Shown: positions 4,827 to 28,377, counted from the first letter of the stretch. The stretch: DNA of 32,000 nt from an uncultured Bacilli bacterium (GCA_944358535.1 CALVRH010000007.1:1-32000); one strand, 5' to 3'. Notes: generated from the letters alone by a model not told the origin. A program made the numbers and translations.

Positions 4827-5642
4827 TTACCTCTCCTTTTGACATTTTTCACAATAATAAGTTCCGCGTCCGCCAACATTTATTTTATTTATTTTTGAAT
4901 GGCAAATAGGACACTCCTCTTTGGTGTGAACAAGTAAGTTTTGCTGAAATCTTCCGTGAACTCCTTCACTAGATTCATAGCTTTTTACGGTTGTTCCACC
5001 ATATTCTATGGCTTTTTCAAGAACCTTTCTTGTAAAATCTATAATATTTTGCAAGTCTTTGTCTTTTAAGTTTGTTGCAATAGTTTTAGGATTTATTTTA
5101 GATAAAAAGAGAATTTCATCAGCATAAATATTTCCGATACCGACAATAATAGTTTGGTCTAAAAGTTCGGTTTTAATCGGTTTTTTGTGAAATTTTTGTT
5201 TTAAGTATTCTTTGGTTAATTTTTTATCCCAAGGCTCTAACCCTAATTCATTTAATGGTTTTTCGTTAAATGCTTCATCTTTTTTTAGTAAGTACATTTT
5301 TCCAAATTTTCTGGTGTCATTATATCTTAAGTCGGTGTTATCTGAAAAGTGAAAAATAACGTGCTGGTGCTTTTCTCTAGGGTCAGTATTTTTTTTGATG
5401 TAATATTTACCTTCCATTCTAAGGTGTGATAATAGGTAATAATCATCAAGTTCAAACATTAACCACTTACCTCTTCTTTTGATGTCATGAATTATTTGAT
5501 TTTTTATTTGGTTTTCAAATTCTTTTATAGAAGGATAAGCTATTATATTATCCCAATAAATTTGAGCGGATAATATTTTTTTGTCTTTGACTTCTTTGAT
5601 TAATGTTCTTTTGACAGTTTCAACCTCAGGTAATTCAGGCAT
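4827..5642 (-). CDS. mutM: Formamidopyrimidine-DNA glycosylase
   Basis: N-terminal MPELPEVE and a C-terminal CPICHSKI...YYCEKCQ zinc finger. Confidence 0.95.
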   Translation of the reverse strand: MPELPEVETVKRTLIKEVKDKKILSAQIYWDNIIAYPSIKEFENQIKNQIIHDIKRRGKWLMFELDDYYLLSHLRMEGKYYIKKNTDPREKHQHVIFHFSDNTDLRYNDTRKFGKMYLLKKDEAFNEKPLNELGLEPWDKKLTKEYLKQKFHKKPIKTELLDQTIIVGIGNIYADEILFLSKINPKTIATNLKDKDLQNIIDFTRKVLEKAIEYGGTTVKSYESSEGVHGRFQQNLLVHTKEECPICHSKINKINVGGRGTYYCEKCQKER

Positions 5643-5650
5643 ATTACCAC

Positions 5651-5872
5651 CTACTTCTCTTTGTATTTAGCTTCAATAATTATCTTACCGTTTTTAGATT
5701 TTTTTGTTTTCTTTTTTATATATGGTTTTACACTATTATATATTATATATATTCCCCAGCACACTAAGGCAAAAAGCGCTATATATATAAAAAGATGAGC
5801 TAAAAAAAATAAGATAATTATTCCTAAAATAAATAGTAAAACTTGTTTTACATTAATGTTCAAAAAAATCAC
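5651..5872 (-). CDS. Small membrane protein (two hydrophobic helices, basic tail)
   Basis: The ORF sits at the head of the mutM-pyk operon. The true start is probably TTG at 5863, 5 nt after AGGTGA. No family was recognised. Confidence 0.5.
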   Translation of the reverse strand: MIFLNINVKQVLLFILGIIILFFLAHLFIYIALFALVCWGIYIIYNSVKPYIKKKTKKSKNGKIIIEAKYKEK

Positions 5873-5879
5873 CTAATCA

Positions 5880-5908
5880 ATTATAACATGCTTTTTATGT
5901 CATTTCAA
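5880..5908 (-). promoter_or_regulatory. Sigma-A promoter of the small-ORF-mutM-pyk operon
   Basis: The minus strand reads TTGAAA, a 17-nt spacer, then TATAAT with an extended TGT. Confidence 0.55.
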
Positions 5909-5916
5909 TTGAAAAT

Positions 5917-5951
5917 AGGTGTTTTTTTGAGGTTTTTTTGAGGTTTTTTTG
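5917..5951. repeat. Three phased A7/T7 tracts (unit GAGGTTTTTTT, ~11-bp period)
   Basis: aggtgttttttt gaggttttttt gaggttttttt lies directly upstream (minus-strand sense) of the promoter at 5880-5908. Confidence 0.7.
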
Positions 5952-6142
5952 GATATTTTAGGCTCAAATTCACCATTTCTATCTCTAGGTTAAAATTCAA
6001 GTTCTTTAAAATCTCTTTTTAAATTCATTTTAGTACTTCTATTTCTATAATTTATTTTTTCTTTCATAAAAAATCTCTCCATTTCTTCTATTTTATTATG
6101 GAAAGATTTCTGTTTATACAATTTTATTTACAGGCTCATAGT

Positions 6143-7693
6143 TTATCTTGTTTTTCCTTTTGAATTACTACTTATTTCATTTGAATATAATCTATCAAGT
6201 TGTTCAGTATCTATGTATATTACTTTCCCACCTGGCGGATTAATTTCTATTCTACCGAAAACTATCCATATTGCATCTATTGGTGTACTTGGCATATCTG
6301 CATCTCCATCTGTAAAAATTATCTTATTTTCGACTCTTCTTGTAAATGCATTGATAGCCGCATCAAAGTTAGTTCCACCACCACCATAAAATTCCAAATT
6401 GTCAATATCGGATACATCTTTAATTTCAGTAAAACCATAAAACTTTGTATCAAAACATCCAACTTTAACTTTAGATGTTTGTAATATATTTTTACACTCT
6501 CTTAAAAAGTTTCTAAGTAGTGTTTCATCTATAGAACCACTCGTATCTAATACGATTTCTGTCTCTGGTCTTGGCATTTCCTCTAAATATGCTGTTACAA
6601 CACCATCTTCTATGCCCGCATTTTGATATGACCAGTCAACATCATATTTAACAGCTTCTTTTAATAATCTTCTCCAATCAATAAATGGTTCAGCTGTTCC
6701 AATGTCAGTTATATTTCTTATTTCACTATTTGTAGTGTTTCCATAACCATGTGACTCGCTGGCTAGTGCTTTTCTTAATTCTTCTAGTTGTTTTTTTCTT
6801 AATATTTTATTTTGTTTAAATGTTTCTTTTTCTCCTAATTCTGTTAACTTTTTTATTTCTTCATTCTTTTTCTTTTCTTGCTCTTTATTTTGGTTTTCAT
6901 CAAGTTGTTGTAGCTGTGATTGTTGTTCTTTTTTCTTATCAAACATTTTACTTGATTTATCTAACAAGCTTTGTTTATCTTCACCCTTGTCGTTAGATTG
7001 TCCTGTATTAGATTGTGTTTGTTCTTCTTGATGTCTCTTTTCTACTGCTTTATCCCACATAGAATGAGTGTCATGCCCAACATCTTGTTGTTTTTCTTCT
7101 TTCTGTAAATCTTCACCAGAGCCACCACAACTTTGCTCTTTTGATTGTTTATTTTGTTCTTGTGAACTTTCACTACTAGAGCTGCTTTGTTGTTGAAATT
7201 GTGATTGCTGTTCATTGTTTCCATTTTGTCCATTACCACCACTTTGTTGTTGGCTACCTTTTTGATTTTTACCATTGCCCTGTCCATTTGGTTGTTGCTG
7301 TTGTGTCTTTTCCTCTAAAAGTTTTTTGTACATTTCTTCTGCATCATAATTAATCGCCTCTGGAATATCAACACCACCTTCAACTATAGATAATCCATCT
7401 TGTTTTAGAAAAGCATTTATAACCGAATCAGTTGCTATATTCCATAAATCTTTATCTTTACCTTCACTTCTAAAAATGTGATCAAATGCTATATGACATA
7501 TTTCGTGAGCAAAAATAAATGTTTGCTCTTCATCTGTAATAGATTCAATAAAGTTAGGATTATAATAAATGGTTTTGCCATCTGTTCCTGCTGTCCCTAC
7601 TGCTGGTTCAGCAATAAAGTTAGAATTAGCTACTACACTTCCAAAGAAAGGATACTTAACTAATAATCTTCTTTTAATAGAGTCTACATTCAT
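6143..7693 (-). CDS. Zn-metallopeptidase (DUF2201_N-like, HExxH), low-complexity linker, vWA (DUF2201-like) protein
   Basis: FIFAHEICHIAFDH (HExxH, 7493-7507) with a downstream NIATDSVIN block. Residues ~127-300 are Q/N/S/E/K-rich. The C-terminal vWA has a DTSGS MIDAS motif (6533-6547), GGGGTNF and IFTDGDA. Confidence 0.85.
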   Translation of the reverse strand: MNVDSIKRRLLVKYPFFGSVVANSNFIAEPAVGTAGTDGKTIYYNPNFIESITDEEQTFIFAHEICHIAFDHIFRSEGKDKDLWNIATDSVINAFLKQDGLSIVEGGVDIPEAINYDAEEMYKKLLEEKTQQQQPNGQGNGKNQKGSQQQSGGNGQNGNNEQQSQFQQQSSSSSESSQEQNKQSKEQSCGGSGEDLQKEEKQQDVGHDTHSMWDKAVEKRHQEEQTQSNTGQSNDKGEDKQSLLDKSSKMFDKKKEQQSQLQQLDENQNKEQEKKKNEEIKKLTELGEKETFKQNKILRKKQLEELRKALASESHGYGNTTNSEIRNITDIGTAEPFIDWRRLLKEAVKYDVDWSYQNAGIEDGVVTAYLEEMPRPETEIVLDTSGSIDETLLRNFLRECKNILQTSKVKVGCFDTKFYGFTEIKDVSDIDNLEFYGGGGTNFDAAINAFTRRVENKIIFTDGDADMPSTPIDAIWIVFGRIEINPPGGKVIYIDTEQLDRLYSNEISSNSKGKTR

Positions 7694-7702
7694 AAGTTAT
7701 CC

Positions 7703-8104
7703 TTAAATTTGTGCTAATAATGAATATACTTCTTCATTTATTTTATTAGCAGTTAAATCGGAACAAGTAACAATAACCAAACAATTTTTAGGTAATTCAA
7801 ATGTACTAACTTTTTTATATTTAAGTATCTCAATAAATTTAGTTTGTTCTTCTAATGGTGTTTCATTTATATTTTCAATTACTAAAACTGACGTGTTTGT
7901 TTTACTTCTATCTAATAATTCTTTATACCAAAGTGGAGGACAAAAATCTGTATTTTCATAATGCCCATTTAATTCAGATCTATCAATATTTGATTTTATA
8001 ATAACTGAATTATTAAAAGAATTAGAAGGTATGTTTTGAACCAATAATGGAGATACTCCAGATTTAATATAATTTTCTAATAAATTTAATCTTTCTTTAT
8101 TCAT
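7703..8104 (-). CDS. Degenerate AAA_5 core paralogue (pseudo-ATPase) of the upstream ATPase
   Basis: Aligns by eye with residues ~305-455 of the 8101-10035 product. Walker A GRSSEGKS becomes QNIPSNSF, PPTWY matches PPLWY, and Walker B IIFFDELTNA becomes VLVIENINET. LPPNARIVAAGN matches LPKNCLVIVTCS. There is a 4-nt ATGA overlap with the upstream gene. Confidence 0.7.
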   Translation of the reverse strand: MNKERLNLLENYIKSGVSPLLVQNIPSNSFNNSVIIKSNIDRSELNGHYENTDFCPPLWYKELLDRSKTNTSVLVIENINETPLEEQTKFIEILKYKKVSTFELPKNCLVIVTCSDLTANKINEEVYSLLAQI

Positions 8105-10035
8105 CTTCTTATTCCTCCTTGTGATAAGCTATCAGCCATTTGTACTTCTGCAAGGCGTTCTAATCTTCTCTCATCTCCATGTGCCCACATAGATTCAAAT
8201 GCAGCTCTTGGTTCTGCACCTACTTGCTTCATAAAATCTCTTACTACTTCAAAATGCTCATCATCAACAGAGGATAATCCAACTGCTGTTGCAAATTTTT
8301 GTGATACATCCATTTCTAAATCTCTACTTGAATAATTATGATTAATTACATCTTCAACACTTATTACTTGCCTACTTGCAAATGCTGTAAAATCCTTTGT
8401 CAAATCTTCTCCTATTAATGCTCTTAACATTTCTGGCTGTTTAGTTTTATAAAGTAATTTAGATGCCATTTCCCATTTTCTTGGGTCTGCATTAGGTTTA
8501 TCTCCAGTATACGGAGTTCTTAAGACATCATGACCACTATAAGACTTATATGCTATGTAAGCATATATAGAAGGATGAATTTTCGCCTCTGATTCTCCCT
8601 CTTTATAATCTAATCTTTCGTATTTTTCTTTAGGTGTTGATGCCCATTTTAACCAGCTATCTACTGTTGTATGAATATAAACATGAGCAAATCTGTTGAA
8701 TAATGGTTCTGCCATTTGATTTGCCGCTAATGAATCATTTAAATCGTTTCCAGCAGCAACTATTCTTGCATTAGGTGGTAACTTCCATTTACCATTTACT
8801 TCACCATCTAATACTATGTTAAATGCCATACCTTGTATGGAAGGAAGTGCATTTGTAAGTTCATCAAAGAATATAATATGAATTTTATCTGGTTCAGCTT
8901 CACATTTTTCTTTTACTTTTGAATACCATGTTGGTGGTACATCAATCATTTCTCCTGTTGCAGCGTTATAAACACTCTTTCCATTTAAGCTATCAGGAGT
9001 TGCATTTCTCATATATATTATTTCTAAGTCTGGATCTAATTGTTTTACTCTTGCTGATTTACCTTCACTTGATCTACCATGTAAGAATACTGGAACATTA
9101 CTTTCTACTGCTCCTCTTATTATATCTTCTTCTGATACTCCATCAAAATTGAAGCCATAAGGGTTTTGTTTTCTTACCGGTTCTTTTCCTTCTAAATTTT
9201 GGGTTTGTTCTACTGATGTAGTTGGTGAATAAACTCTGTCAGTTACTATTTCTTTTGAGAAATAATTATCTATAAATTGTTTTATATCAGTTCTATCAAA
9301 ATCGCCTTTGTAATCTCTACGATTTTTAAATTGTACTCCAGAAAAAATTAATTTCTTCGAAAGTGCTATATTTGCTCTTTCATCTACTAGCCAAGTTATT
9401 GGTTCAACACGAACCCAATATGTATTTCCTGATTGAATTGTTCTACCATCAGACAAAACCTCTCCATCACAGTTTGAATCACCAACAAAACGAATATATT
9501 TACTTCCATTATATTCATATTCAGTATGAGCTCTAGGCCTAAAATTTGTATCATAATCTTGGTATCTAACTGAATCTGTTGTATAATTTTTGCCTGTAGT
9601 TCTTAAACTTCCATTATTGTATGCTCTTTCTAATTCACGAGAATAATTTTCATCAACAATTGTTTGTGGATATTCACCATAAAGGGTTTCCTTAATTCCA
9701 CTGGCACCTCTCACTCCGTTCGAGGAGACCATTTGGATTGAAGAGTAAAGTAAAGCTGGGCGAGCCCCACCAAAGCGCTTATAAACATTGAACCAACTTC
9801 TAGTACCATTTCGGCTAACGACGCGCGCGTCATTGTTATAAGGTGTTTTTGTCCACCACCAACCAGTTCTATCTTTTCTAGTATTTCCTTCACTAGTATA
9901 ATCATCTGATGATACATAACCACCTAATAAAATAGAAAAATCAGTTATAGCACATTTTGTACCATATCTACTTATTATATCTAACTGATTAATTCCAAAT
10001 ATTTGTTCAACAGTTAAAAATGTAAAGTTATTCAT
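8101..10035 (-). CDS. Lectin-like (DUF6273-like) N-terminal module fused to an AAA_5 / MoxR-NorQ-class ATPase
   Basis: Walker A GRSSEGKS (9055-9078), Walker B HIIFFDE (D391-E392 at 8860-8865), sensor ARIVAAGN and EPLFNRFAHVYI. The N-terminus has GWWWTKTP...GGARPALLYSS, the motif shared with 27460-28377. Confidence 0.85.
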   Translation of the reverse strand: MNNFTFLTVEQIFGINQLDIISRYGTKCAITDFSILLGGYVSSDDYTSEGNTRKDRTGWWWTKTPYNNDARVVSRNGTRSWFNVYKRFGGARPALLYSSIQMVSSNGVRGASGIKETLYGEYPQTIVDENYSRELERAYNNGSLRTTGKNYTTDSVRYQDYDTNFRPRAHTEYEYNGSKYIRFVGDSNCDGEVLSDGRTIQSGNTYWVRVEPITWLVDERANIALSKKLIFSGVQFKNRRDYKGDFDRTDIKQFIDNYFSKEIVTDRVYSPTTSVEQTQNLEGKEPVRKQNPYGFNFDGVSEEDIIRGAVESNVPVFLHGRSSEGKSARVKQLDPDLEIIYMRNATPDSLNGKSVYNAATGEMIDVPPTWYSKVKEKCEAEPDKIHIIFFDELTNALPSIQGMAFNIVLDGEVNGKWKLPPNARIVAAGNDLNDSLAANQMAEPLFNRFAHVYIHTTVDSWLKWASTPKEKYERLDYKEGESEAKIHPSIYAYIAYKSYSGHDVLRTPYTGDKPNADPRKWEMASKLLYKTKQPEMLRALIGEDLTKDFTAFASRQVISVEDVINHNYSSRDLEMDVSQKFATAVGLSSVDDEHFEVVRDFMKQVGAEPRAAFESMWAHGDERRLERLAEVQMADSLSQGGIRR

Positions 10036-10053
10036 ATATAAATCACCATAGAT

Positions 10054-10081
10054 ATCATAACGTATTTTATTTTTTTGTCAA
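10054..10081 (-). promoter_or_regulatory. Sigma-A promoter of the three-gene operon
   Basis: The minus strand reads TTGACA, a 16-nt spacer, then TATGAT. GGTGA and the ATG follow. Confidence 0.55.
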
Positions 10082-10113
10082 GGCTTAAGGAGATTTAAGG
10101 CTTTTTTTGGATA

Positions 10114-10142
10114 TTGACTAGGTAAATTAAACATGATAAAAT
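10114..10142 (+). promoter_or_regulatory. Sigma-A promoter of the T-box leader
   Basis: TTGACT, a 17-nt spacer, then TAAAAT. Confidence 0.55.
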
Positions 10143-10149
10143 GTTGTTA

Positions 10150-10346
10150 GTAAATCAATGACAAAGAATAGTAATATAAATGCTATTTTATAAGAGAGTT
10201 AGTGGTTGGTGCGAACTAATAATGGCTTTATATGAATCTACTTTGGAGAGAAGTTAAAAACTTCCGGGATGACCGTTATCATAATTAAGCAGCCGTATAG
10301 GATGGTACCGTATTACATATACTCCTAACATAGGGCTGTTTTTTCT
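10150..10346 (+). promoter_or_regulatory. T-box riboswitch leader, serine specifier (TCT)
   Basis: AGAGAG bulge (10193-10198) and a specifier loop GAA-TCT-A (TCT at 10237-10239). F-box CCGTTA (10273-10278), T-box core GGATGGTACCG (~10300-10310), then a terminator arm and T-run (10339-10346). Confidence 0.8.
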
Positions 10347-10367
10347 TTAAATTGGAGGTGTTTATGT

Positions 10368-10874
10368 ATGAATAACTGGTTAAAATATTTTAGTAATGAA
10401 GAAGTTTCTGGATTTAGAAATGCAGAAAATTTATATGGTAAAGCATATTTAATATGTGAAAAGGTTTTTGAAGGAAAGAAAAATAAAGCGGGTATTCCCT
10501 ATATGGATTATTTATCTATATTAGCTGATTATTTTTCTGATGAGAAAGCTAAAGCTGTTTCTTTAATGCATGATATTTTTAAGGAAACTGATTTAACTGA
10601 AGAAGATTTAAGTTATATTGGTTTTCCAAGTGATGTAGTTAAAGCTGTATCGATTCTTACAAGAGGTAAAGATGAGGATTATGATTCATTTATTAATAGA
10701 ATTATCGATAGTAAGAATGGTTTAGCTTTACAAGTTAAAAAAGCTGATTTGAAACAAAGTATGAATGTTAGTGGCTTTGAGGTATCTGATGAATATTTGA
10801 ATAGAATTGATGTTAGATATAAGCCACAATATGAGAAAATTTTAGGTTATTTAGATGAAACAGAGGAGAGTTAA
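10368..10874 (+). CDS. Small HD-domain protein, RelA/SpoT-hydrolase-like (HD_4-like), partly degenerate motifs
   Basis: GIPYMDYLSILA resembles GEPYxxHPLxVA, and SLMHDIFKETD resembles LLHDVxEDT. The assignment is by motif memory only. Confidence 0.45.
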   Translation: MNNWLKYFSNEEVSGFRNAENLYGKAYLICEKVFEGKKNKAGIPYMDYLSILADYFSDEKAKAVSLMHDIFKETDLTEEDLSYIGFPSDVVKAVSILTRGKDEDYDSFINRIIDSKNGLALQVKKADLKQSMNVSGFEVSDEYLNRIDVRYKPQYEKILGYLDETEES

Positions 10875-10876
10875 AC

Positions 10877-12163
10877 ATGATAGATATTAAGTTAATTAGA
10901 GAAAATAAAGATTTAGTTAAGGAGAATATTAAGAAAAAATTTCAAGATAAAAAATTACCTTTAGTAGATGAAGTATATGAACTTGATATTAAGTGCCGAG
11001 AGGCTAAGGGTAAAGGTGACGAACTTAGGGCATTAAAAAATGAAAAAAGCGCTTTAATTGGCGCTTTAATGCGCGAAGGTAAAAAAGAAGAGGCTGAAAA
11101 AGTTAAGGCTGAAGTTAGTAAATATGGCGATGAGATTGAAAGACTAGGTAAAGAGGAAGAAGAATTACGTGAGAAAATATATGCAGATATGATGGTTATT
11201 CCAAATATTATGGATTCATCTGTGCCTATTGGTGAGGATGACAGCAAGAATGTGGAATTGGAAAAATTTGGAGAGCCTATTATTCCTTCTTTTGAGGTTC
11301 CACACCATGCGGATATTTGTGCGAGATTAAATGGTTTAGATAAGGAAAGTGCGGGAAGAACAAGTGGTAATGGTTTTTACTATTTGATGGGAGATGTGGC
11401 TAGGCTACATTCTGCAATGCTTAGTTATGCTAGAGATTTTATGATAGATAAAGGGTTTACTTACTGCATTCCCCCATTTATGATTAGAAGTGATGTTGTA
11501 AATGGTGTTATGAGTTTTGAGGAAATGGATGCAATGATGTATAAAATTGAAGGTGAAGATTTATATTTGATTGGTACATCTGAACACTCTATGATTGGTA
11601 AATTTCAAGGACAAATTATTAAAGAGGAAGAACTACCTATTACACTTACTAGTTACTCACCTTGTTTTAGAAAAGAAGTTGGAGCTCATGGAATTGAGGA
11701 ACGTGGACTTTATAGAGTTCATCAATTTGAAAAACAAGAGATGGTAGTTTTGTGTAAACCTGAAGATGGTATGAAGTTTTATGATAAAATGTGGAAGTAT
11801 ACTGTGGAATTTTTTAGAAGTTTAAATGTTCCTGTTAGAACACTAGAGTGCTGCAGTGGTGATTTAGCTGATTTGAAGGTTAAATCATGTGATGTTGAGG
11901 CATTCAGCCCTAGACAAAATAAGTATTTTGAAGTTGGATCTTGTTCAATTTTAGGTGATGCGCAAGCTAGAAGACTTGGAATACGTATGAAAACTAAAAA
12001 TGGTAATGAATATGTGACTACTTTAAATAATACAGTTCTTGCTACTCCAAGAGGTTTAATTGCCTTTTTGGAAAACAATGTAAATGAGGATGGAAGTGTT
12101 AATATTCCAGAAGCATTAAGGCCTTATATGGGAGGTATTGAGAAATTAGTTCCTAAAGACTGA
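10877..12163 (+). CDS. serS: Seryl-tRNA synthetase
   Basis: N-terminal coiled-coil arm followed by class II core blocks (FRKEVGAHG..., YRVHQFEKQE, NNTVLATPR). Confidence 0.95.
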   Translation: MIDIKLIRENKDLVKENIKKKFQDKKLPLVDEVYELDIKCREAKGKGDELRALKNEKSALIGALMREGKKEEAEKVKAEVSKYGDEIERLGKEEEELREKIYADMMVIPNIMDSSVPIGEDDSKNVELEKFGEPIIPSFEVPHHADICARLNGLDKESAGRTSGNGFYYLMGDVARLHSAMLSYARDFMIDKGFTYCIPPFMIRSDVVNGVMSFEEMDAMMYKIEGEDLYLIGTSEHSMIGKFQGQIIKEEELPITLTSYSPCFRKEVGAHGIEERGLYRVHQFEKQEMVVLCKPEDGMKFYDKMWKYTVEFFRSLNVPVRTLECCSGDLADLKVKSCDVEAFSPRQNKYFEVGSCSILGDAQARRLGIRMKTKNGNEYVTTLNNTVLATPRGLIAFLENNVNEDGSVNIPEALRPYMGGIEKLVPKD

Positions 12164-12194
12164 TATTAATTTATCGGTTTTTTTCATAATAAAA

Positions 12195-12245
12195 AGGAAT
12201 TTCGCCTTTCACGAAGTATGTTAATCTATGAAAGGAGGAATTCCT
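12195..12245. terminator. Long imperfect hairpin between convergent serS and the nuclease gene
   Basis: aggaatttcgcctttc (12195-12210) pairs with gaaaggaggaattcct (12230-12245). It is flanked by an A-run and a T-rich tract. Confidence 0.5.
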
Positions 12246-12311
12246 ATGTTTTATTTGATAGAACAATTTAGATTTATTATTTATGTTATTTGGGAATATT
12301 TTGATTATAAA

Positions 12312-13034
12312 TCAAGATAGATGGCTATCACCATTGGTATAATCGATAGTGATGCCATCTTGTACATTATATATATAGACATTGAAGCATATTTTTCCGC
12401 ATTTATCTTCTACAGAACTTGCTTCTATTTGAACACCGCTAGCTAGTAAGTTATTACTTTCATAAATTGGAGTTACTCTATATAAAACATGATTGTTTGT
12501 TTCATCTATGTAATTTGCAACTTTATTTTCAAAGTCTAACATGGCTCCAGTGTTCATCTGTCTTGTGCAGGTTATTAAGTTTTTTTCATTGGCATTTTCG
12601 CCAGTTAATTGATAACCTATTAAATGGCAACGATTATACAAATATTTTCCACTTACAATATCATATTTTATAGTATGCCAGCCAGTAGGTTTAATCATAC
12701 CGATTGAGCCTCTTTCTATAGTTGGCATAGTTTCTTTTCCAACTTTAGCAAAGGCCCTTCCAGCTCTATTTAAACTATCTAAAGCACTATATGATTCGAA
12801 TGTTTCTTTAGTATAGTCTTCATCAGTAAAATCTGGTTTATTATTATTTATTTCAGTATAAGCATTACCATTATACTTTGGTATGTTTTCTAGGGTATAT
12901 GTTTCTTTTGTTTCAATTAATGGTTCAGTTAAAAATTCTTTTATTTCGTTTTGGTATGCAATACACAAGAATATTAAAACTATTAAAGTAGTTATAAATA
13001 TATTTTGTTTTTTCTTTTTACTTCTTCTTGCCAT
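12312..13034 (-). CDS. Membrane-anchored DNA/RNA non-specific endonuclease (EndA / Endonuclea_NS_2-like)
   Basis: N-terminal TM segment IFITTLIVLIFLCIAY and a catalytic-region block YNRCHLIGYQLTGENANEKNLITCTRQMN. The start overlaps the polA stop by 1 nt (TAATG). Confidence 0.7.
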   Translation of the reverse strand: MARRSKKKKQNIFITTLIVLIFLCIAYQNEIKEFLTEPLIETKETYTLENIPKYNGNAYTEINNNKPDFTDEDYTKETFESYSALDSLNRAGRAFAKVGKETMPTIERGSIGMIKPTGWHTIKYDIVSGKYLYNRCHLIGYQLTGENANEKNLITCTRQMNTGAMLDFENKVANYIDETNNHVLYRVTPIYESNNLLASGVQIEASSVEDKCGKICFNVYIYNVQDGITIDYTNGDSHLS

Positions 13035-15622
13035 TATTTCGCCTCAGCCCAGTTTTTTCCGTAATTAATGTCAATAGTTAATGGAACAGAAAGCTCACAT
13101 ACATTATCCATAATGTCGGTAACTATTTCTTTTACTTTTTCTAGTTCTTCTTTTGGTATGTCAAATATTAATTCATCATGAACTTGAATGATCATTTTAC
13201 TTTTTAGATTATTATCTTTGAAAGCTTTATATACTTTAACCATGGCAAGTTTTATTATGTCAGCAGCTGTTCCTTGAACCGGTGTATTTAAGGCAATACG
13301 TTCTCCGCTTTGTCTAATTGTATAGACAGTGTTTTTTAATTCTGGAATGTTTCTTTTTCTATTAAACATGGTTGTTACATACCCTTTTTCTTTTGCATGG
13401 TTAATAGATGAATCCATATATTCTTTAATACCAGGATATGTTTGTAAATAAGTGTCAATGAAGTTTTTGGCTTCGGCTGGTCTTATTCCGACGTTTTCAG
13501 CTAACCCAAAACTACTAATACCATAAATGATTCCAAAGTTAACAGCTTTTGCTACTCTTCGCATGTTACTAGTTACTAGTTCAAGTGGGACATGGAAAAT
13601 GTCACTGGCGGTTTTAGCATGAATATCTAATTTATTATGAAAGGCTTCTTTTAAAGATGAAACATTAGCCATATGGGCTAGAACGCGAAGTTCGATTTGT
13701 GAATAATCGGCACCTAAAATATAATCAAAGATTGGGACAAAGGCTTTTCTTATTGATCTACCAAAGTCATCTCTTACAGGAATATTTTGTAAGTTAGGTT
13801 CAATTGATGATAATCTACCAGTTCTAGTTAGGTTTTGTGTATATATGGTATGAATTTTTCCATCTAAAGAAATTGTGTTTATTAACCCTTCGACATATGT
13901 ACCATAAATTTTTGATAGTTTGCGGTATTCGATAATTTGATTTATGATTGGATGTTTGTCTTTTAGTTTATTTAAGACATCAATGGCTGTGGAATATCCA
14001 CTAGCAGTTTTCTTTTTATGTGGAAGATTTAATTTTTCGAATAAAACTTCACTTAGTTGATTAGGGGACGAGATATTAAATTCACATCCTGCACTATTAT
14101 ATATATCTTTTTTTAGAAGTTCTAGTTTTATTTGAATATCTTCGCCCATGTCTTTTAAAACTTGTTTATCAATTTTGACACCGGTAAATTCCATGTCGGC
14201 TAAGACGGTGGCTAGAGGAAGTTCAATTTCGTTAAATAGGTATTCAACGTTTTCTTCTTTGATTTTATTTTGGAAAAGTTCTTTAGTTTCATAAATAAAT
14301 TTAGCTCTATCTACGCAAGCTTTAGCAATTATTTCTTCATTTGGTTTTTTTAAGCTAGAATTTTTACCATATATTGTTTCATAAAATTCTAATTTATAAT
14401 CTATTTGATTAGCTAGATAAGCCATATCTTCTTTCATATTATAATCTAGTAAGGCTCCTGCTATCATGGTGTCAAATGTTACATTATCTATTTTTACTCC
14501 TTGCCATTTTAAGGCGACAATCATTTTCTTTAAGTCATAGGTGTATTTGATATTTTGTGTTAAAAATTCTGGATTTTGTTTTAAGATTTCTGGTGAGATA
14601 AAATAAGCTATTTCTTCATTATAGACTCCCATACCTAATATGGATGATTTATGATAGTTTTGACCTAATATTTCTAGATATACTGCAGCGTCTCCATTTA
14701 TTTTGATATCATCTATATTTTTTACAATTTGTACTTTTACTTCTTTTTTAGTTTTTTCTTGTTTATTTTCTTTTTTTAAGAAAGAATAGAATTCTAAATC
14801 TTCATATAATTTGTTTAATTCTTCTCTATTTTCACCTTTATATTTAGTGTCTTCAATGGTTATTTCCATTGGAACGTTTTTGACAATAGTAGCTAGATGG
14901 TAAGATTTATAGGCGTTTTCTTTATCGTTTCTAATTTTTTCACCTAATTTTCCTTTGATGTTATCTGCGTTTTCATATATTCCATCTAATGTTTTATATT
15001 CATGAAGAAGTTTTAAAGCTGTTTTTTCACCTACACCTTTAACTCCTGGAATATTATCTGATGAGTCGCCCATTAGGGCTTTTAAATCAATTACGTTTAT
15101 TGGTTTAATTCCATAAGCTTCTTCAAAATTTTTTTCATTATATCTGATATAATCTTTTTGTTTTAAAAGTTTTATATCAACATCGTTTGAGATTAACTGT
15201 AATAAGTCTTTATCACTACTTACGATAGTTCCAATAAAATCTTTATCATCATCACAAAATTTAGCAAATGTTCCAATAATATCATCGGCTTCGTAATTAT
15301 CTATTTCATAGTATTTTATACCCATGGCAGTTAGTAGTTTTTTAGCTATAGGAAACTGCTTTTTTAGTTCATCGGGTGTTTCTACTCTACCGCCTTTATA
15401 GTCTTCATATTCTTGATGTCTAAATGTTTTTCCTTTATCAAAAGCAACTATGACATATTCGGGATTTTCTTCATTAATTATTTTATGAATCATATTTACA
15501 AAGCCAAATAAGGCATTGGTTGGAAACCCTTTACTATTATTCATAAAATTACCATTATAAGCGGTTGCATAATAACTTCTAAACATGAGGTTATTTCCAT
15601 CTATCATAATTATTTTTTTCAT
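13034..15622 (-). CDS. polA: DNA polymerase I
   Basis: 5' nuclease N-terminus, motif A DYSQIELRVLAH and motif C IIQVHDELIF. Confidence 0.95.
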   Translation of the reverse strand: MKKIIMIDGNNLMFRSYYATAYNGNFMNNSKGFPTNALFGFVNMIHKIINEENPEYVIVAFDKGKTFRHQEYEDYKGGRVETPDELKKQFPIAKKLLTAMGIKYYEIDNYEADDIIGTFAKFCDDDKDFIGTIVSSDKDLLQLISNDVDIKLLKQKDYIRYNEKNFEEAYGIKPINVIDLKALMGDSSDNIPGVKGVGEKTALKLLHEYKTLDGIYENADNIKGKLGEKIRNDKENAYKSYHLATIVKNVPMEITIEDTKYKGENREELNKLYEDLEFYSFLKKENKQEKTKKEVKVQIVKNIDDIKINGDAAVYLEILGQNYHKSSILGMGVYNEEIAYFISPEILKQNPEFLTQNIKYTYDLKKMIVALKWQGVKIDNVTFDTMIAGALLDYNMKEDMAYLANQIDYKLEFYETIYGKNSSLKKPNEEIIAKACVDRAKFIYETKELFQNKIKEENVEYLFNEIELPLATVLADMEFTGVKIDKQVLKDMGEDIQIKLELLKKDIYNSAGCEFNISSPNQLSEVLFEKLNLPHKKKTASGYSTAIDVLNKLKDKHPIINQIIEYRKLSKIYGTYVEGLINTISLDGKIHTIYTQNLTRTGRLSSIEPNLQNIPVRDDFGRSIRKAFVPIFDYILGADYSQIELRVLAHMANVSSLKEAFHNKLDIHAKTASDIFHVPLELVTSNMRRVAKAVNFGIIYGISSFGLAENVGIRPAEAKNFIDTYLQTYPGIKEYMDSSINHAKEKGYVTTMFNRKRNIPELKNTVYTIRQSGERIALNTPVQGTAADIIKLAMVKVYKAFKDNNLKSKMIIQVHDELIFDIPKEELEKVKEIVTDIMDNVCELSVPLTIDINYGKNWAEAK

Positions 15623-15935: not shown

Positions 15936-16180
15936 CCATAGACCAGTATCGGATAGTCGCTACCCTAATTTATATTATTTATTTACCAAAATTTATTGAT
16001 TAAATAGATTGCTCTAGATATAACATGTATTTTTCTAAACCTTTGAACATTATATTAACTGCTGCATTATAATCACGTTCATGCTCTGTATGACATACTG
16101 GACATTCCCATTTCCTTATACTTAAATTTTTTACTTCCTTATTTTGATAATTACAAACATTGCAAAGTTGACTACTTGGA
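15936..16180 (-). ncRNA. Putative omega-RNA of TnpB copy 2
   Basis: The conserved RE block ends at 15956. The predicted guide is the minus-strand TATCCGATACTGGTCTATGG (15936-15955). The 5' limit is a guess. Confidence 0.3.
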
Positions 16181-17223
16181 TAATATCTGTCTATTTGTAT
16201 TAGTTTTTTATTATTAAAGTTAGCTTTATATTTAAGTACTCTGATAATTTCTGAAATAGGATTTTCGTTTAAGCCTTTAGCTACATAGTGATTCTTCTGC
16301 ATACTTCTTACATCTAAATCTTCAGTTACTATAATGTCATTTTCGTTTATTAATTTATTTGTTATATCATGTATCATATGTTTTCTTGCATTTCTTATCT
16401 TTTGATATAATCTTTGGATTTTTAGTTTCATCTTATATCTATTTTTACTTCCTTTTTTACATCTAGAAAGTCCTCTTTGCAGGCCTACCATTCTTTTAGT
16501 GTTTAGTTTAATGGTATTTTCTATTTTCTCATTAAATGATGTTACTATTAAATCTTTTATTCCTAAATCTATGCCGATTATGCTTGTTGGAACAAAAGAT
16601 GGTCTTATTAGTTCTTCTTCTATTAAAACACTTACATAATATTTACCGGCATCTTTTTTAATTACTGCACTTTTAATCTCACCAGGCACTACTTCTTTAT
16701 TTCTATATCCTCTTATCTTTACTTCTTTTAATTTTGGTAAAGTGATTGTTTTATTTTTTAAATCTAGTTTAATACTGTTATAATTATTTCCTTTATAACT
16801 ACTTTTAATATTATTGGTTTTATAACTTTCATGTACTCCTTTTGCTTTAAATCTAGGATAACCGTTTCCATTAAAAAATCTTTTATAAGCATCTTCTAAA
16901 TTAAATAGACTATTTCGAAGTGCGCAGCTATCTACTTCTTTCAAAAACGGATACTCTTTAGAAAGTGATGGTATTAATTTCATTTGGTCATAAGTTGATT
17001 TACTTTTGCCAGTTTTTTTATATTCTTTTATTTTATCATCCAAAAAATAATTATATATAAATCTAGAGCAGCCAATAGTTTTATTAATTAATTCTTCTTG
17101 CTCTTTAGTTGGATACATTCTAAATACATAGCCTTTTAATATTTGCATACCATCACCTTCAATCTTTATTGCAATCAATATATCACGAATAGTTATATTT
17201 GTAAATAACTTTTTGCAAACTTT
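15956..17223 (-). mobile_element. IS200/IS605-family tnpB-only element, copy 2
   Basis: See copy 1. The two copies are diverged, with many substitutions, so they are not a recent duplication. Confidence 0.6.
16000..17148 (-). CDS. tnpB: TnpB RNA-guided endonuclease, copy 2
   Basis: Roughly nine in ten residues match copy 1 by eye. The D/E/D and Zn-finger motifs are intact (IVTEDLDV). The start is ATG 17148, after GAAGGTGA. Confidence 0.85.
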   Translation of the reverse strand: MQILKGYVFRMYPTKEQEELINKTIGCSRFIYNYFLDDKIKEYKKTGKSKSTYDQMKLIPSLSKEYPFLKEVDSCALRNSLFNLEDAYKRFFNGNGYPRFKAKGVHESYKTNNIKSSYKGNNYNSIKLDLKNKTITLPKLKEVKIRGYRNKEVVPGEIKSAVIKKDAGKYYVSVLIEEELIRPSFVPTSIIGIDLGIKDLIVTSFNEKIENTIKLNTKRMVGLQRGLSRCKKGSKNRYKMKLKIQRLYQKIRNARKHMIHDITNKLINENDIIVTEDLDVRSMQKNHYVAKGLNENPISEIIRVLKYKANFNNKKLIQIDRYYPSSQLCNVCNYQNKEVKNLSIRKWECPVCHTEHERDYNAAVNIMFKGLEKYMLYLEQSI

Positions 17224-27459: not shown

Positions 27460-28377
27460 TTATTCAATTTGATATGGGTTATTTTGGCTTCCATCTCCTC
27501 CAGTGATTTGGACTTCAGATGAAAGAGTTATGGCAGGCCTGACCGCATGGTTCGTAATGTTCGCGTCGTTGTTGTAGGGGTTGCCGTTAGAGTGCACGTA
27601 GAACACGTGGTTAGAGTCGCCGGCAATGGACGACAAGGTCCACCAATAATTACTTGAATCATACATCCACGTGGTATTTTTACATGTACTATAATTACTA
27701 TTAAAAGTACTATATGTTTTACAGTTTGAATTTGAATTTGTTCTTAAATATTCGCTTACTGTTGGTAATGCTATTTTTCCATTCCATGTTTTACTATTTT
27801 CATCATTGACTTGATCGGCTAAATCATTATTATAAACTGTTACTGCACCTATACTATAATCAGATGCAACTATTTGACTTTGGGCTTCACTACTTAAACT
27901 ATTTAAATATGTTCCATTTAAATATGTATTTAAACTGGCTGGTCTAGCCCAATTATTTGAATTAGATGTATCCCATGCTAAAGAATTGCTAGTATTTATA
28001 TTTGCTGTTTTCATTATCTTTATAGTTCCATCACAACCTACAGAAATAATTCTCCAGCCTGCAGTTTCTCCATTAAAGGTTACATAATTATTTGGGTTTG
28101 CTCCCGTAAAGAAATACCTACATTCATATGGGTCTTTTTCTAACCCATTATCTTCTATTATTTGTTCTCCTGGTGGCTTAGTTGTACATACTCCATATAA
28201 TTCATCTATTGCTTCTTGTACATCTGTACTTTCAAGTCCACTCACAGTATTATCATATGTCACATCTTCACTTGGAAAATATGTTGCTGCTATTACACTT
28301 GCTGCTCCACAAATTATTAAACCTGTTATAAATCCTGGTAAATATCCAATCATAATTTTCTTTATTTTTTCTTTCAT
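27460..28377 (-). CDS. Membrane-anchored DUF6273-like (lectin-fold-like, WW...VRPA) protein with a VR-like C-terminal patch
   Basis: N-terminal TM anchor, then the TYFPSEDVTYDNTVSGLESTDVQEAIDELYGVC motif. The body (GWRIISV..., WARPASLNTYLNG, ALPTVSEYL) is followed by YWWTLSS...AVRPAITL and a GDGSQNNPYQIE tail. SD is GGAGGA. Confidence 0.8.
   Translation of the reverse strand: MKEKIKKIMIGYLPGFITGLIICGAASVIAATYFPSEDVTYDNTVSGLESTDVQEAIDELYGVCTTKPPGEQIIEDNGLEKDPYECRYFFTGANPNNYVTFNGETAGWRIISVGCDGTIKIMKTANINTSNSLAWDTSNSNNWARPASLNTYLNGTYLNSLSSEAQSQIVASDYSIGAVTVYNNDLADQVNDENSKTWNGKIALPTVSEYLRTNSNSNCKTYSTFNSNYSTCKNTTWMYDSSNYWWTLSSIAGDSNHVFYVHSNGNPYNNDANITNHAVRPAITLSSEVQITGGDGSQNNPYQIE

Follow-up and report, generated by a model that had tools for sequence, protein, structure and literature searches.

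Three tightly coupled minus-strand genes at positions 6143-10081 of a 32,000-nt stretch of DNA from an uncultured Bacilli bacterium (GCA_944358535.1 CALVRH010000007.1:1-32000), hereafter called the window, raise the question of what an ATPase with an N-terminal head, a second ATPase-like protein and a peptidase-vWA protein do together between housekeeping operons. An earlier note, made from the sequence alone, had read these genes as a self-contained operon in which a lectin-like head senses a ligand and an ATPase passes the signal on to a protease. Here, the genes are called G1, G2 and G3 (genes 1, 2 and 3 of the trio), and all coordinates are those of the window. Our analysis identifies G1 as the target of a diversity-generating retroelement (DGR) and, on balance, favors the trio as a cytoplasmic, DGR-programmable binder that would drive a MoxR/vWA/metallopeptidase module, most likely in genetic conflict. 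The three genes and the diversified part of G1 are as follows.

8101-10035, minus strand: G1, an open reading frame (ORF) of 644 aa encoding a head, a disordered linker and a MoxR-like AAA+ ATPase
7703-8104, minus strand: G2, an ORF of 133 aa encoding a degenerate AAA+ core
6143-7693, minus strand: G3, an ORF of 516 aa encoding a zincin metallopeptidase, a linker and a vWA domain
9241-10035, minus strand: head module of G1, residues 1-265, the variable part of the family
9747-9830, minus strand: DGR variable region (VR), codons 69-96, DARVVSRNGTRSWFNVYKRFGGARPALL; nucleotides 206-289 of G1
GGTGGGGCTCGCCCAGCTTTACTTT, minus strand: 3' end of the window VR, resembling an initiation of mutagenic homing (IMH) site

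G1 is the target of a diversity-generating retroelement

With alignment A2 as the query, alignment A1 (50%-identity cluster representatives) being too diverse, a search of GTDB species, each represented by a single genome, returned 263 G1 relatives, and the locus analyses reported here cover the best 77 of these 263 loci. Immediately upstream of G1, many loci carry an ORF of 338-377 aa for a reverse transcriptase (RT; RVT_1, 5.8e-18), preceded by an ORF of ~193 aa for the DGR protein Avd (phrog_3206, 3.6e-12). Between Avd and RT lies an 80-100-bp repeat of G1 codons ~69-100, the template repeat (TR), whose mismatches to G1 fall at TR adenines in 10 of 10 cases in locus L055, 10 of 10 in L065, 12 of 12 in L048 and 9 of 11 in L063; TR/VR pairs of a similar kind were found in at least 17 loci. 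Since template and target differ almost only at template adenines, which is the signature of mutagenic retrohoming, G1 is a DGR target. The RT is nearest to RTs of gut phages, including that of phage nd12 (~42% identity). The "self-contained operon" of the earlier note is thus real as a trio but is not the whole system, as the unit in relatives is Avd-TR-RT-G1-G2-G3. Among the 62 loci with enough upstream sequence, the RT is full-length in 24, reduced to remnants of 46-250 aa in eight and absent from 30, and the remnants show the DGR part to be subject to decay.

A DGR inside the window was ruled out, because the 32 kb contain neither an RT ORF nor a repeat of the head-coding DNA, and the window copy may therefore not be diversifying. 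TRs matching the window VR were found in L028 (Ca. Onthocola stercoravium, G1 94% identical) and L170 (G1 95% identical, full DGR), and these two TRs are identical to each other. Compared with the corresponding TR sequence (ACGCGCGCGTCGTTAACAAAAATGG...CCCAGATTCACTTT), the window VR shows 13 mismatches, 12 of them at TR adenines (binomial p = 1.7e-5, given 28 adenines in the 84 VR/TR positions). The TR encodes DARVV-N-K-N-G-N-R-N-W-N-N-V-N-K-R-N-GGARP, and its AAY/AAA (Asn/Lys) codons are exactly the ten most variable codons of G1 (74, 75, 76, 78, 80, 82, 83, 85, 86 and 88), which reach 2.1-3.0 bits of entropy among 57 homologues with at least 85% identity, the mean for the ATPase among the same homologues being 0.14 bits. 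In the structural model, these residues make up a beta-hairpin (strands 69-73 and 79-83) and the next loop, before the conserved GARPAL. The near-confinement of the mismatches to adenines and the hypervariability of the Asn/Lys codons of the TR together indicate that the window G1 is a genuine DGR variable protein whose retroelement is absent from the window.

Locus L109 occupies the same chromosomal site as the window copy and is likewise without an RT. Of the 84 VR positions, 17 differ between L109 and the window, and 14 of these 17 are TR adenines; over the whole of G1, the difference is 5.4%. This pattern suggests that, after insertion, the VR may have been diversified in trans or alleles may have been exchanged.

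Two further observations concern the DNA upstream of G1 in relatives. A conserved ORF of ~162 aa without a family match lies between a helix-turn-helix (HTH) regulator and Avd (L063 7294-7782, L065 2295-2828, L170 2214-2705) and may be a further DGR accessory or mobile-element gene. An apparent linkage to cytosine methylases was rejected: single-linkage clustering had lumped the upstream ORFs with a C5 DNA methylase, and their sequences and Pfam matches identified them as the DGR RT and Avd. Methylases account for 2 of the 111 nearest neighbors of G1 loci.

The head is the variable part of G1

The head alone was modeled with high confidence (predicted local distance difference test, pLDDT, 93.9; predicted TM-score, pTM, 0.92). 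Across the G1 family, the entropy per column is 1.2-2.3 bits in the head versus 0.4-0.9 bits in the ATPase, and tandem G1 paralogues have ATPases that are 99-100% identical with heads that are 35-50% identical. The proposed hypervariable, ligand-binding head was therefore borne out to the extent that the head is the DGR-diversified, variable part of the protein.

Pfam DUF6273 matches the G1 head below its threshold (E 0.0016-0.006; 17-19 bits versus a cut-off of 23.5), and this match is confined to head residues 53-95 and to the last ~45 positions of the Pfam model. A precomputed match to PF19789, the DUF6273 entry, is present in some close G1 homologues, and hhalign against the window's own DUF6273 protein returned a probability of 74% over 44 columns. 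The latter, a second DUF6273 protein (27460-28377, minus strand; 305 aa; Pfam E 3e-10), has an N-terminal membrane anchor and a C-terminus, ...NYWWTLSS...HAVRPAITLS, with the kind of motif found in DGR variable regions; its DNA has no similarity to the G1 variable region.

Predicted activities of the three proteins

The domains and motifs located in the three proteins, all on the minus strand, are as follows.

9166-9234, minus strand: disordered linker of G1, residues 268-290, with pLDDT <50 and the highest entropy and gaps
8671-9138, minus strand: AAA+ alpha/beta core of G1, from motif and structure matches
9055-9078, minus strand: Walker A of G1, GRSSEGKS (K326)
8860-8877, minus strand: Walker B of G1, IIFFDE
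8746-8760, minus strand: sensor-1 (Asn) of G1
8689-8703, minus strand: LFNRF Arg of G1
8104-8670, minus strand: helical lid and C-terminal domain of G1, all-helical in the AlphaFold2 model, residues 458-643
7955-7972, minus strand: LNGHYE, family-invariant motif of G2
7319-7675, minus strand: zincin metallopeptidase of G3, with HEICH at 7493-7507 (residues 63-67)
6704-7318, minus strand: low-complexity linker of G3, Q/N/S/E/K-rich, residues ~126-330
6194-6682, minus strand: vWA domain of G3, with the metal ion-dependent adhesion site (MIDAS) DTSGS at 6533-6547 (residues 383-387)

The AlphaFold2 model of G1, built with 27 diverse homologues, is confident (pLDDT 84), and the top PDB matches of its AAA+ part are NorQ, NorQ-NorD complexes and CbbQ (Foldseek E 1e-9 to 5e-7). 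G1 also matches PHROG 1297, annotated as "ATPase" (6e-42). Pfam AAA_5 stays below threshold on G1 (E 0.089; 13.2 bits versus a cut-off of 22), NCBIfam has no match for G1, G2 or G3, and PDB sequence searches with G1 and with a G2 profile gave no match. Judged by the modeled fold together with Walker A, Walker B, sensor-1 and the Arg finger, the G1 ATPase is predicted to be of the MoxR class, as had been proposed, with its Walker motifs intact.

G2 had been described as a dead copy of this ATPase core. It is homologous to the G1 core by BLASTP (2e-4), and hhalign aligns its residues 6-133 with G1 residues 303-452 (97.8% probability, E 1.2e-12). Its P-loop is deleted, its Walker B reads VLVIEN in the window (EN or DN replacing DE), and the sensor-1 Asn, the Arg finger and the lid are gone. 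The description is therefore well founded, and G2 is, in all probability, a catalytically dead remnant of the G1 ATPase core. Alignment A1 contains many distant full-length G1 homologues with degenerate Walker A/B motifs (HTRLDEDTT, GDTVIVRF, FFDK, YLRN), which suggests that full-length inactive G1 paralogues may exist beside the short G2 form.

For G3, both Pfam domains score above threshold (DUF2201_N, 1.1e-33; DUF2201, 8.4e-15), and the protein matches PHROG 1314 (2e-64). Its zincin part matches the minigluzincin selecase MJ1213 (PDB 4qhf, E 3e-4), and further MIDAS residues lie in GGGGT (437-441) and FTDGD (460-464). G3 is thus predicted to be a COG3864-type metallopeptidase-vWA protein composed of DUF2201_N and DUF2201, with HExxH and DxSGS, which agrees with the peptidase-vWA reading with an intact MIDAS in the earlier note. 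Of the Pfam families named there, those of G3 were confirmed, but AAA_5 and DUF6273 were not reached on G1.

The trio is co-conserved in uncultured gut bacteria

Among 50%-identity cluster representatives, 5,735 are related to G1, and 715 of these fall below 1e-30; cluster P0003 of homologues (90% identity) has 818 member sequences. The best 77 loci come almost entirely from metagenome-assembled genomes (MAGs) of uncultured gut "Bacilli", "Tenericutes" or "Mollicutes", with Candidatus Onthocola, Candidatus Faecisoma, Coprobacillus sp. CAG:605 and Clostridium sp. CAG:417 as example hosts. G2 and G3 follow G1 in 53 of the 57 loci with enough downstream sequence, so the three genes do belong together, as supposed. 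In the other four, G1 and G3 occur without G2; three of these are from MAGs labeled Oscillospiraceae or Ruminococcaceae, and for the fourth, L026, G2 was detected in another of the locus scans. The catalytic motifs are highly conserved, with Walker A in 75/75 and Walker B in 74/75 G1 copies, and HExxH in 61/64 and DxSGS in 63/64 G3 copies.

Several full-length G1 genes occur in seven loci, arranged as G1-G1-G2-G3, as repeated cassettes or as G1-G2-G3-G1-G1-G1. Tandem G1 arrays of up to six copies were seen in L069 (2434-16724), L077 (8530-17992), L030, L031, L034 and L058, and the single TR of L077 matches up to four G1 copies. In some arrays, the G1 copies are identical except for the C-terminal ~170 residues, and in others the heads alone differ; this pattern could reflect gene conversion, head swapping or assembly collapse.

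The cassette is inserted at a variable chromosomal site

The positions that delimit the cassette in the chromosome are the following.

5941-10112, no strand: inserted or variable block, replaced by 616 bp in syntenic L112
10102-10114, minus strand: first copy of the 13-bp direct repeat ATATCCAAAAAAA, at the upstream breakpoint
5944-5956, minus strand: second copy of ATATCCAAAAAAA, at the downstream breakpoint

A metagenome scan with the window MutM identified L112, a 110-kb gut contig (MutM 85% identical) that shares the synteny of the window (polA, NS endonuclease, serS, 168-aa ORF, 73-aa ORF, mutM, pyk and nucleotidyltransferase) and has no trio. DNA homology between the window and L112 ends at 10112 and restarts at 5941; the intervening 616 bp of L112 carry an unrelated ORF. 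This trio-free site in a close syntenic relative bears out the proposed insertion between housekeeping operons, and, because L112 holds a different ORF there, the spot that separates mutM from the T-box/serS operon is variable in content. That ORF, at the "empty" site (L112 9081-9697), is small, on the opposite strand and acetyltransferase-like. The cassette DNA common to other genomes extends from ~10115, slightly ahead of the promoter, to ~6138, at the G3 stop; in L008, the shared homology sets in within a truncated RT gene, 4 bp from its end. ATATCCAAAAAAA has exactly two exact copies in the window, both at the breaks of L112 homology, and the pair may represent microhomology or a target duplication; the count of two is not significant, as it was reached in 28 of 100 shuffles with one mismatch allowed.

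Relatives at least 91% identical occupy differing contexts, among them three different chromosomal ones. In L170, the surroundings include Mob_Pre, an HTH regulator, Avd and RT; in L065, a large serine recombinase and Bro-N lie downstream; in L084, a prophage-like IMG/VR contig, the cassette directly follows tail, holin and endolysin genes; and in L008 and L167 it lies between unrelated chromosomal genes. Together, these comparisons of gene content and DNA homology identify the window cassette as a DGR-less inserted copy of a mobile system of uncultured gut Bacilli/Mollicutes-like bacteria.

Two observations bear on the history of the surrounding chromosome. In distant relatives (L115, L118-L120, L131-L134 and others; MutM ~58-64% identical), mutM is directly behind polA. 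In the window lineage (4827-15622), an inverted block of NS endonuclease, serS and the 168-aa ORF, followed by the cassette, lies between polA and mutM.

Comparison with known systems

DGR-diversified C-type-lectin/FGS domains have been described on the vWA component of MoxR-vWA-VMAP systems (PMC7159879, PMC10907252). These VMAP ternary systems (Kaur et al. 2020, PMC7159879; Dore et al. 2024, PMC10907252), known from cyanobacteria, Chromatiales and actinobacteria, share with the trio a MoxR-class ATPase, a vWA protein, a peptidase and a DGR-diversified binding domain as the presumed sensor, as well as cytoplasmic proteins and multiplying paralogues. Different from the trio, in which the variable domain is N-terminal on the ATPase, they carry it C-terminally on the vWA protein or on a separate target; their peptidase is on the third, VMAP protein, whereas the zincin of the trio is fused to the vWA protein. 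The third protein of the trio is a dead AAA core and not an obvious VMAP protein, and the hosts of the trio are small-genome gut Bacilli instead of multicellular bacteria.

A parallel to G1 itself is provided by the C-type lectin-AAA (CLec-AAA) "Midasin-like" DGR targets of candidate phyla radiation (CPR) bacteria (Paul et al. 2017, cited in PMC10907252; Wu et al. 2018, PMC5758913), which, as described, join a variable domain and an AAA ATPase of the dynein/midasin/MoxR kind in one polypeptide, as in G1. By these descriptions, their variable domain lies at the C-terminus, and neither a zincin-vWA protein nor a pseudo-ATPase is mentioned as a partner. Midasin-like AAA matches among CPR targets are reported in PMC5758913, which also gives N-terminal VRs as rare (3/372).

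The DGRs of the "tentaclins" of phages nd4 and nd12, which are DGR targets with N-terminal DUF6273 variable regions (PMC10743442), resemble that of the trio in the RT (~42% identical), a VR near the 5' end of the target, a WW...RPA scaffold and a VR formed by a hairpin and flanking loops; tentaclins, however, are virion receptor-binding proteins with Ig-like domains, whereas G1 is a cytoplasmic ATPase. NorQ/NorD and CbbQ/CbbO, of the MoxR CGN subfamily, can be likened to the trio in pairing an ATPase ring with a MIDAS-bearing vWA partner. In structure, the G1 ATPase matches NorQ and CbbQ best (target TM ~0.55), at 12-15% sequence identity, but these pairs serve a fixed client enzyme from a stable housekeeping locus and include neither a peptidase nor a variable head. 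McrBC is comparable by analogy only: it combines an N-terminal specificity domain that varies among homologues with an AAA_5-type NTPase and a separate effector, but McrB is a GTPase reading modified DNA and McrC a nuclease, unlike G1 and G3.

The earlier note knew of no system with a sensor head on the ATPase itself. As DGR-linked MoxR-vWA systems had already been described (PMC7159879), this claim of novelty is narrower than it was stated; the arrangement itself was not found described, since our literature search, which was incomplete and is no proof of absence, returned no paper on an N-terminal VR ATPase with a dead AAA protein and a zincin-vWA protein. The trio is thus a previously unremarked arrangement among DGR-linked MoxR-vWA systems, a kind already known. 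Its predicted distinguishing features are the N-terminal variable region on the ATPase itself, the dead AAA partner and the zincin-vWA effector.

Proposed function and alternatives

G1, G2 and G3 have no hydrophobic segment in any of them, indicating that all three are soluble and cytoplasmic. A cytoplasmic binder that is kept hypervariable by a retroelement points to an evolving intracellular ligand, and hence to genetic conflict. We propose that G1 would form a MoxR-type ring displaying hypervariable heads, that G2 would be incorporated in this ring, cap it or regulate it, and that the vWA domain of G3 would dock on it as NorD does on NorQ and CbbO on CbbQ. The head would bind its matching ligand inside the cell, for which a protein from an invading phage or plasmid is the most plausible candidate; ligand capture would lead to ATP-driven remodeling, by which the G3 peptidase would be activated or positioned and would then cut the bound ligand or a host target. 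New specificities would be supplied by the DGR, with about ten codons (74-88) rewritten by adenine-specific mutagenic retrohoming, and the specificity of the window copy would be either frozen or serviced in trans.

Several results weigh against this proposal. Foldseek of the confident head-only model against PDB and BFVD returned nothing significant, and DUF6273 matched only 2 of 21 diverse heads at E <= 0.01; the lectin fold named in the earlier note, for which the DUF6273 match is sub-threshold and no significant fold match was found, is kept only as a putative assignment. The window holds no RT and no TR. In PADLOC v2, none of G1, G2 and G3 matched any defense-system model at E <= 0.1. The neighbors of the cassette (77 loci; 111 nearest flanking proteins, scanned with PADLOC and Pfam) are heterogeneous and mostly housekeeping, with no enrichment in defense genes, and no conserved neighbor other than the trio was found across the loci. 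Phage homologues of the ATPase and the zincin-vWA protein sit in replication modules and have been proposed to be assembly chaperones (PMC7824862). Finally, we infer ring formation, G2 incorporation, vWA docking and protease activation by analogy, and the sensor-to-ATPase-to-protease logic of the earlier note keeps this same standing; neither PADLOC nor the neighboring genes support defense.

A bolder form of the conflict reading is put forward tentatively, and we consider it possible rather than probable: Avd-TR-RT and the trio might together be an adaptive-immunity-like device of small-genome gut bacteria, or of elements carried by them, in which new specificities are written by the retroelement at the tip of the MoxR ring, ligand capture inside the cell leads to proteolysis by the vWA-tethered zincin, and RT-less chromosomal copies are re-diversified in trans. 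Such re-diversification in trans is suggested by L109, which at the same chromosomal site differs from the window at adenine positions.

To our knowledge, no DGR-diversified cytoplasmic NTPase "sensor" has a demonstrated ligand or output. Such sensors have been predicted from genomes for years, mostly from large multicellular bacteria or uncultivable CPR organisms. The trio family is compact (~4 kb, or ~6 kb with the retroelement) and abundant; it offers catalytic handles in K326, the Walker B DE, HEICH and the MIDAS motif, and natural controls in DGR-bearing versus DGR-less copies, tandem arrays with swapped heads and G2-less versions. The role of a DGR-programmed intracellular binder is therefore directly testable in this family. 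Nature has here coupled a hypervariable binder directly to an ATPase and a protease, a scaffold that may interest protein engineers, and thousands of "hypothetical proteins" of gut MAGs can now be annotated as DGR targets.

Four other explanations were weighed against genetic conflict. The one that survives best, although we regard it as unlikely, is that the system serves the mobile element, as a DGR-programmable binder-protease of prophages or integrative mobilizable elements that inactivates variable host proteins (e.g. defense proteins) or excludes competing elements. The location of the full DGR and trio, both in the neighborhood of Mob_Pre relaxase, HTH regulator, large serine recombinase and Bro-N genes and directly behind the tail, holin and endolysin genes of the IMG/VR contig, fits this explanation, as do an RT nearest to those of gut phages, including nd12, and an ATPase/zincin-vWA pair that is common in phages. 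On the other hand, 30 of the 62 loci have the trio with intact catalytic motifs but no RT and no recognizable mobile genes nearby, suggesting retention by the host. Defense cargo on mobile elements would, moreover, look alike, and the data do not separate both readings.

That the window copy is an inactive and decaying relic, once a DGR target but now left without a retroelement of its own, appears improbable to us. The missing RT and TR in 32 kb and the RT remnants in eight related loci would fit a relic, but the three ORFs, Walker A/B, HExxH and MIDAS are all intact and the promoter is consensus-like, an identical protein occurs on four contigs from different samples, and the VR differences between L109 and the window, 14 of 17 at TR adenines, hint at diversification or allele exchange after insertion.

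Phages provide a third explanation. Their MoxR ATPase and metallopeptidase-vWA pair is homologous to G1 residues ~300-620 and to the whole of G3, with the same DUF2201_N and DUF2201 architecture, and each member (PHROG 1297 and 1314) is found in ~545 phage records, mainly of N4-like, rV5-like, PA5oct-like and Campylobacter phages. In jumbo phages it has been described as a [quoted passage not shown], for which virion assembly with proteolytic processing was proposed (PMC7824862). The trio could, by extension, be a chaperone-protease of assembly or maturation whose head tethers it to a structural substrate. We hold this to be very improbable, as the phage ATPases are headless, with G1 residues ~300-620 alone aligning, and have no DGR; the cellular trio occupies chromosomal sites without phage structural genes, and a DGR on an assembly factor would have no obvious rationale. 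The phage pair also differs from the trio in that no G2-like gene was seen with it and its two genes are separated by other genes within replication modules.

Finally, a housekeeping MoxR/vWA pair for cofactor insertion or enzyme activation like NorQ/NorD or CbbQ/CbbO, despite NorQ, NorQD complexes and CbbQ being the closest solved structures to the ATPase, was ruled out for practical purposes by the trio-free site of L112 with identical synteny, the variable contexts, copy numbers and tandem arrays, the lack of a conserved adjoining client gene and the hypermutation of the G1 head by a retroelement.

Operon signals and surroundings of the cassette

The signals upstream of the cassette are the following.

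10054-10081, minus strand: promoter TTGACA-16-TATGAT, sigma-70-type, 11/12 matches, the best of the region
10149-10329, plus strand: T-box RF00230, upstream of the cassette and divergent, followed by a 168-aa ORF and serS

As read from the sequence, G1 and G2 overlap by ATGA, and the G2 stop TAA lies inside the TAAGGA Shine-Dalgarno sequence of G3. A scan of the region found promoter-like sites to be scarcer in the real sequence than in shuffles, so the promoter match alone is no proof; the homology of the cassette DNA in other genomes continues across it. The ORFs, the overlaps and TTGACA-16-TATGAT all lie where the earlier note had placed its three-gene minus-strand operon with a promoter of its own.

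On the downstream side, the cassette is followed by a 73-aa membrane ORF, mutM and pyk. A 25-codon ORF (5989-6066, minus strand; MKEKINYRNRSTKMNLKRDFKELEF) with a GGAG Shine-Dalgarno sequence lies in the 200 bp from the G3 stop to the downstream breakpoint, a stretch common neither to other cassettes nor to L112. Two IS605-family TnpB ORFs (OrfB_IS605/Cas12f-like TNB; 119-1372 and 16000-17178, both minus strand), with no adjacent TnpA, distantly flank the polA-to-pyk region, and no link to the cassette was found. The remaining window is housekeeping and includes polA, polC, RNase R, prmC, prfA and a penicillin-binding protein. In the stretch formed by the T-box and the ORF behind it (10149-10874, plus strand), the 168-aa ORF is without a Pfam match; serS begins 3 bp later, and the ORF behind the T-box is also kept in L112 and L109.

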